Of a stretch of 7,246 nt of DNA, positions 558 through 672 are shown piece after piece. Below the pieces are notes generated by a model. It ran no database searches and was not told where the DNA came from. It was given only the letters and a program-made list of their open reading frames with translations. This stretch comes from a virus. Its lineage: Duplodnaviria; Heunggongvirae; Uroviricota; Caudoviricetes. The DNA lies in the IMG/VR virus record IMGVR_UViG_2548876964_000020. One strand, 5' to 3'. Made by a program: the position numbers and the translations under genes. The stretch's first letter is position 1. Each line of letters begins with the position of its first letter.

Positions 558-582
558 AAAAAAAGGCCCGCAAAAGCGAGCC
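558..582 (-). terminator. Rho-independent terminator immediately 3' of the tRNA-like element
   Basis: Stem GGCCCGC (565-571) / GCGAGCC (576-582) with one mismatch, loop AAAA. On the minus strand it is followed by T7 (complement of A7 at 558-564). Confidence 0.55.
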
Positions 583-596
583 AGGGAAAATAAGTG

Positions 597-672
597 TGGC
601 GCGTTGTACTGGATTCGAACCAGCGACCTGGCGATTATGCGTCGCTCGCTCTCACCACTGAGCTAAAGGGCC
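597..672 (-). tRNA. tRNA-Ile(CAU)/ileX-like element, probably a pseudo-tRNA or chimeric tRNA (acceptor stem does not pair)
   Basis: Minus-strand read: GGCCCTTTAGCTCAGTGGTGAGAGCGAGCGACGCATAATCGCCAGGTCGCTGGTTCGAATCCAGTACAACGCGCCA. Canonical D-arm and T-arm (GGTTCGAATCC), CAT anticodon, CCA end. But the 5' acceptor strand GGCCCTT cannot pair with the 3' strand ACAACGC (2 of 7 pairs), position 33 is G rather than the universal U, and pair 27-43 is A/C. Confidence 0.5.

Follow-up and report, generated by a model that had tools for sequence, protein, structure and literature searches.

The tRNA-like element described here is very probably a non-functional hybrid pseudogene, ileZ::argO, generated by recombination within a tRNA cluster of lambdoid phages. 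It lies in a window (by which we mean the whole stretch of DNA analysed, 7,246 nucleotides of IMG/VR virus record IMGVR_UViG_2548876964_000020) and has the features expected of such a hybrid: its halves come from different adjacent genes, its flanks are syntenic with those of the intact cluster, and its breakpoint falls within homology shared by the two parents. An initial annotation made from the letters of the sequence had placed a tRNA-Ile(CAU)-like element at 558-672 and had proposed a decayed phage tRNA or a recombination junction as alternatives. Both proposals are right, jointly, as indicated by the ileZ and argO halves and a 174-bp gap relative to intact loci. The coordinates also hold; the strand, left unstated there, is the minus strand, and the argO origin of the 3′-end as well as the loss of 174 bp (two and a half tRNA genes) had been missed.

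The element and its parts are listed below; tRNA position p corresponds to window position 673-p, and the CCA ends at 597.

672→597, minus strand: tRNA-like element, 76 nt
624..672, minus strand: ileZ-derived part, tRNA positions 1-49, identical at 48/49 positions to ileZ of Stx2a_WGPS8 and Nil3
617..623, minus strand: crossover interval CTGGTTC, tRNA positions 50-56, the same in the ileZ and argO T arms
597..616, minus strand: argO-derived part, tRNA positions 57-76, identical to argO at 20/20 positions when aligned from the 3′-end
558..596, minus strand: argO 3′ trailer and intrinsic terminator, found by a terminator scan and matching the sequence that follows intact argO in Nil3

Origin of the element from ileZ and argO

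Read in the 5′ to 3′ direction, from window position 672 to 597, the element is GGCCCUUUAGCUCAGUGGUGAGAGCGAGCGACGCAUAAUCGCCAGGUCGCUGGUUCGAAUCCAGUACAACGCGCCA. Its ileZ-derived part spans the 5′ acceptor strand GGCCCUU, the D arm, the anticodon arm, the variable loop and the first base of the T stem, while the argO-derived part consists of G57 of the T loop, the 3′ T-stem strand CCAGU, the 3′ acceptor strand ACAACGC, the discriminator G and CCA. The crossover is bounded by G49 (window 624), the last ileZ-specific base, and G57 (window 616), the first argO-specific one. Because identity reaches 48/49 with ileZ and 20/20 with argO, the similarity reflects homology and is not due to chance. The initial annotation had called the last 12 nt unrelated to the rest; a different origin is indeed found, but the stretch is 20 nt long and is the 3′-end of argO. 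The terminator that had been credited to the element itself is present and belongs to argO. Its stem-loop, GGCUCGC-UUUU-GCGGGCC at 582..565, follows a trailer of 14 nt and is followed by a U-run at 564..558; apart from a T-run one base shorter, the sequence is the same as behind intact argO in Nil3.

A BLAST comparison of the region with phage records placed a 261-nt query on approximately 376-436 nt of Stx and other lambdoid phages in two pieces, which fall across annotated ileZ, argN and argO genes. We aligned the window with the intact loci of Stx2a_WGPS8 (NC_049944) and phage Nil3 (AM051322), in both of which ARAGORN calls all three tRNAs. The genes of the former (locus L001) are positioned as follows.

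689-764: ileZ
772-848: argN
862-938: argO

The alignment contains a single clean 174-bp gap between near-identical flanks; the missing DNA comprises the 3′-end of ileZ, the whole of argN and the 5′ part of argO. Base-by-base comparison revealed a 22-nt direct repeat, GGTC[G/A]CTGGTTC[A/G]AATCCAG[C/T]A, made up of the two T arms of ileZ and argO, with 19 identical positions and a spacing of 174 bp in both phages. Judged by its sequence, the repeat would be an obvious substrate for deletion.

The fusion shares its site downstream of Q and its leader with the ileZ-argN-argO clusters of Stx2a_WGPS8, Nil3 and phiP27, and its trailer, terminator and STnc100 neighbour with that of Nil3. In the Stx-phage cluster, however, the three genes are intact and U33 is present, whereas in the fusion 174 bp are missing, none of the genes is intact and position 33 is G.

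The genes of the window are all encoded on the minus strand, in the transcription order DUF968, RusA, Q, a small ORF, a methyltransferase and the fusion. The neighbours that define the locus are the following.

2346..3167, minus strand: late antiterminator Q (Pfam PF03589 Antiterm, E=5.3e-52; 'antitermination protein' in PGAP)
713..1771, minus strand: N6/N4 DNA methyltransferase, a 'moron' between Q and the tRNA site (Pfam PF01555, E=7.7e-44; 'DNA-methyltransferase' in PGAP)
521..329, minus strand: STnc100 sRNA, downstream of the fusion (Rfam RF02076, 144.5 bits)
267-328, plus strand: AgvB sRNA, convergent with STnc100 (96.5 bits, exact match to the consensus)

The Antiterm domain and the synteny with annotated clusters bear out the earlier assignment of the site to the ileZ/argN/argO position downstream of Q, and since Q is upstream, the element is placed in the leader region of the late operon. 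The locus is the 'moron' site that Tree et al. 2014 (PMC4104026) described, which lies downstream of PR′ and has convergent sRNAs. A scan of window 250-1000 detected no sigma-70-like promoter, so the element is presumably transcribed from upstream, from PR′ or together with the methylase unit. STnc100 occupies the same place after intact argO in Nil3 (L002 815-1005, 138 bits), and beyond the sRNA pair a DUF6645 gene starts at approximately window position 118.

Several other features of the region were recorded. The terminators of STnc100 and AgvB are adjacent (358..341 and 303-322), and in related genomes a partial 'hypothetical protein' pseudo-CDS annotated by PGAP overlaps STnc100. In the Stx phages WGPS8 and Nil3 the interval from Q to ileZ lacks a methylase gene; the approximately 100 nt upstream of their ileZ (L001 580-688, L002 380-488) are nearly identical to window 673-780, the 3′-end of the methylase gene, and this retained remnant suggests that the methylase moron was deleted in both phages. 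At the right end of the window, a truncated ORF at 6688-7203 on the minus strand encodes integrase-core (rve) domains. Matches to the closest O111 genomes are split into two pieces, and the span they cover in those genomes includes an annotated IS1203 element.

The ancestor, in this explanation, was a lambdoid prophage with the usual ileZ(CAU)-argN(UCG)-argO(UCU) cluster downstream of Q. Recombination or replication slippage inside CTGGTTC of the T-arm repeat is the probable mechanism by which 174 bp were lost. What is left is the ileZ body, to which argO contributes its T loop and 3′ acceptor strand with CCA, and behind them its trailer and terminator. A separate substitution, U33G, takes away the U-turn nucleotide. 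Neither the terminator of argO nor the STnc100/AgvB sRNA pair downstream is affected.

Hybrid tRNA genes produced by unequal recombination of tandem tRNA genes are a classical phenomenon, with the tandem duplicate of E. coli tyrT as an example. As in the fusion, a deletion between direct repeats of conserved tRNA sequence yields a chimeric gene and the intervening DNA is lost. The classical parents, however, are near-identical isoacceptors and their product works, whereas the parents of the fusion are acceptors of Ile and Arg, and the fusion product would be dead because their acceptor stems are unrelated.

Structural defects and loss of tRNA function

The D, anticodon and T arms of the fusion all align to the Rfam consensus, which together with the identity to ileZ confirms their tRNA-Ile(CAU)-like character as originally described. 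The sole non-standard pair in these arms, A27·C43, is also present in intact ileZ. The anticodon loop reads C-G-C-A-U-A-A, with the anticodon CAU at 639..637 and G33 at window 640; G in place of the invariant U33, recognized already in the initial annotation, is the only difference between the ileZ-derived part and intact ileZ, which has U33.

The acceptor stem, in contrast to these arms, cannot form. Only two of its seven positions pair (G1-C72 and U7-A66; position by position GC, GG, CC, CA, CA, UC, UA), which is the modal value for random 7-mers drawn from the window. GGCCCUU, the 5′ strand from ileZ, and ACAACGC, the 3′ strand from argO, are thus unable to form a stem. An upstream scan found no alternative 5′ strand complementary to ACAACGC in tRNA geometry; the best candidate lies 114 nt upstream, within the methylase gene. 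The acceptor stem had been described as non-pairing from the outset, and this description stands. Identity of the 3′-end to that of a known functional phage tRNA had been named as an observation that would speak against degeneracy; such identity was literally found, with argO, but it explains the defect and restores no function, because the argO 3′ strand has no pairing partner in the ileZ 5′ strand.

Covariance and folding analyses gave a similar picture. The Rfam tRNA model RF00005 matches the fusion at 666..607 on the minus strand with 37.3 bits (E=3.5e-05), and the match is local, covering model positions 7-64 of 71 only and leaving the acceptor stem outside. On the same model, intact genes are matched end-to-end with 72.5 (ileZ), 70.1 (argO) and 50-54 bits (argN). 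ARAGORN, one of the checks proposed in the initial annotation, returned zero tRNA genes for the window and likewise for three further loci with the same fusion. The z-score of the minimum free energy against shuffled controls was -0.97 for the fusion and -4.03 for ileZ; this type of folding is uninformative on the cloverleaf even for real tRNAs, although it does show that the closing stem is lost in the fusion. Alternative tRNA folds were ruled out by the ARAGORN result, the local nature of the Rfam match and the lack of a partner strand for ACAACGC.

Public annotation nevertheless treats the same sequence as a gene:

597..667, minus strand: 71-nt 'tRNA-Met' of PGAP/RefSeq, with no pseudogene flag, starting at tRNA position 6

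This span was mapped to the window from identical sequence in the O111:H8 strain 1074-2, the O157:H7 strain PV15-279, Z1323HEC0399 and EL361; intact ileZ is labelled 'tRNA-Ile' by PGAP. Taken at face value, the label implies a working tRNA with an unconventional fold that reads AUG or AUA. Besides the unflagged call, an Rfam score above the family gathering score of 29 would favour this reading. We consider it extremely unlikely and effectively refuted by the pairing test: the score is about half that of intact genes and comes from a local match, ARAGORN finds nothing, the acceptor strands pair at 2/7 positions without an alternative partner, G replaces the invariant U33, and both C4·A69 and C5·A68 are mismatched. 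The PGAP call itself, beginning at position 6, does without the 5′ acceptor strand.

The best-supported reading of the sequence is that the hybrid pseudogene does nothing as a tRNA. Going by general tRNA biology, the lack of an acceptor stem would make maturation by RNase P, lysidine modification by TilS and aminoacylation of the fusion RNA impossible. Pairs 4-69 and 5-68, the two mismatched ones, are reported by Ikeuchi et al. 2005 to be used by TilS. The 174-bp deletion has therefore left the prophage with none of its three accessory tRNAs. The fusion is probably tolerated owing to several intact ileZ copies in other prophages of the same genomes: fusion-bearing genomes hold 5-8 ileZ-like places each, and intact copies would therefore be available.

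Distribution of the fusion and a second ileZ::argO event

We looked for the fusion in complete E. coli genomes. Its 54-nt junction including G33, referred to below as type 1, is present with 100% identity in 162 of 5,426 genomes, mostly STEC; the listed carriers include O157:H7, O111:H8 and O145, and O121 is also among the matches. The ileZ 5′ part with G33 is found at 100% identity in 160 records, while ileZ-like sequence as such occurs at 7,034 places in approximately 3,020 genomes. When IMG/VR was searched with a degenerate pattern, 22 type-1 copies were returned, and each of them has G33. Queries built with U33 recovered no type-1 junction that carries U33, and a comparison of counts (160 G33 5′ parts against 162 fusions) gave no sign of an intact ileZ with G33. 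The junction was found in 0 of 50,697 phage records and 0 GTDB species representatives, so that beyond the E. coli genomes its matches are confined to the IMG/VR contigs.

G33 and the type-1 junction are thus co-extensive, and their constant linkage points to a single origin of the allele. Having arisen once, it would then have spread among STEC prophages via lambdoid mosaic recombination. It occurs in several mosaic contexts, with two leaders and two trailers, which lambdoid recombination through conserved tRNA sequence would be expected to produce. An extra change at the invariant GG of the D loop, G18A, was detected in E. coli EL361 (L006 1541-1616) and in two IMG/VR contigs (L013 and L022).

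The recurrence of the junction also bears on two other origins, an assembly artefact in which the repeated T arms were collapsed and a remnant of a tRNA-borne phage attachment site. The endpoints of the deletion do lie in a repeat, and tRNA fragments are common at prophage ends. We assign the two together a negligible probability. The same junction with linked G33 in 162 independently assembled genomes and 22 IMG/VR contigs, along with the synteny of the locus, led us to reject an artefact. An attachment-site fragment was likewise rejected, since the element sits inside the prophage, with Q/methylase on one side and STnc100/DUF6645 on the other, its locus is syntenic with intact clusters, no integrase or prophage boundary is adjacent to it, and both halves come from phage genes.

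A second, independent ileZ::argO fusion, type 2, was identified in approximately 43 genomes, including E. coli FY10, ATCC 43896 and APEC O2-211.

1041-1116 of locus L007, E. coli FY10: type-2 fusion

The 162 genomes with type 1 and 43 with type 2 account for the 205 genomes that have full-length matches to the U33-built queries. Type 2 retains U33 and the ileZ-type T loop (TTCAAAT); its crossover lies in AATCCAG, 7-14 nt further 3′ than that of type 1, and its end, CCAGU-ACAGCGC-G-CCA, corresponds to the ACAGCGC allele of argO, which is intact in ZH193 with the same trailer. Relative to S21EC, an intact cluster whose flanks are 98.5-99.4% identical to those of FY10, type 2 has a 174-bp deletion with a 20-nt overlap. 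The two types have in common the parents, the size of the loss, the 'tRNA-Met' label of PGAP and a non-pairing acceptor stem (3/7 pairs in type 2). They differ in that type 2 is found mostly in non-STEC strains, has a DUF3927/IraM downstream region and is still called as tRNA-Met by ARAGORN, which does not call type 1. Two independent crossovers in the same 22-nt block indicate that the T-arm repeat is a recurrent deletion hotspot.

In a two-tRNA variant of the cluster in E. coli ZH193 (L009 805-904), a degenerate, unannotated remnant of argN occupies the argN position. In loci of the ZH193 type argN has thus decayed independently, and the cluster is worn down both by deletions and by point decay.

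Changes at otherwise conserved positions (U33G in all type-1 copies, G18A in some of them, and C3T in one type-2 copy, L033) are signs of relaxed constraint, although the sample is small and they are suggestive rather than statistical. These further changes at invariant positions, and the existence of a second fusion tolerated without G33, fit neutral decay, neutrality itself being our reading of the pattern. Most copies, on the other hand, have an identical 76-nt sequence, even though they occur behind two leaders that differ at 5 of the 30 bases shown. This identity could by itself suggest constraint, but ileZ shows the same invariance in the intact loci examined (L001, L002, L008 and L009), and the allele may have spread recently. 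Every type-1 copy has G33, and to attribute its fixation to neutral hitchhiking is an assumption.

An alternative reading is that the fusion RNA is a functional tRNA-like molecule but not a tRNA. It might sequester a tRNA-binding factor as a decoy or sponge, for instance TilS, RNase P or the anticodon nuclease of a defence system, or it might help to process or stabilize the transcripts of the methylase or STnc100; selection on G33 would then have tuned or detoxified the RNA. The third proposal of the initial annotation, a tRNA-like decoy or processing signal, gained no support from the analyses made here. In favour of a function, the three arms, the CCA end and the terminator are intact, and the sequence is identical in 162 genomes and several combinations of flanks, with G33 fixed on the type-1 allele. 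Phage tRNAs are also known to counter defences that target tRNAs, such as PARIS (PMC11464382). Still, we regard such a function as very unlikely. Other universally conserved positions have changed as well (G18A, and C3T in type 2), type 2 keeps U33, and hence G33 is not needed for tolerance, the allele is missing from the phage records and GTDB representatives searched, the stability of the RNA does not exceed that of shuffled controls (z=-0.97), and no such role was found in the literature searched. The narrower proposal of a stable acceptor-less RNA used by the prophage or the host, as a decoy or as a structured 3′-end of the methylase transcript, with G33 fixed by selection, appears slightly less likely still.

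Consequences for annotation and for phage tRNA clusters

The parents of the hybrid pseudogene are well known as members of the Stx-phage cluster, and tandem tRNA genes are known to recombine with one another; this particular fusion was not found described in the literature searched on ileZ/argN/argO, Shiga toxin and chimeric prophage tRNAs. The 'tRNA-Met' label is an annotation error in approximately 205 of 5,426 complete RefSeq E. coli genomes. Without a pseudogene flag it inflates tRNA counts and conceals the loss of accessory tRNAs for AUA and for AGA/AGG/CGA-CGG. The main value of the finding is practical, with no new biological question opened by it. The junction together with G33 is also a handy marker with which a single recombining prophage module can be followed through O157, O111, O145 and O121 STEC.

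For the prophage, the event means the loss of accessory decoders for AUA, AGA/AGG and CGA/CGG, while the terminator and the downstream sRNAs are kept. It also provides a clean and recurrent example of the conserved T arm acting as a deletion hotspot and eroding phage tRNA clusters.
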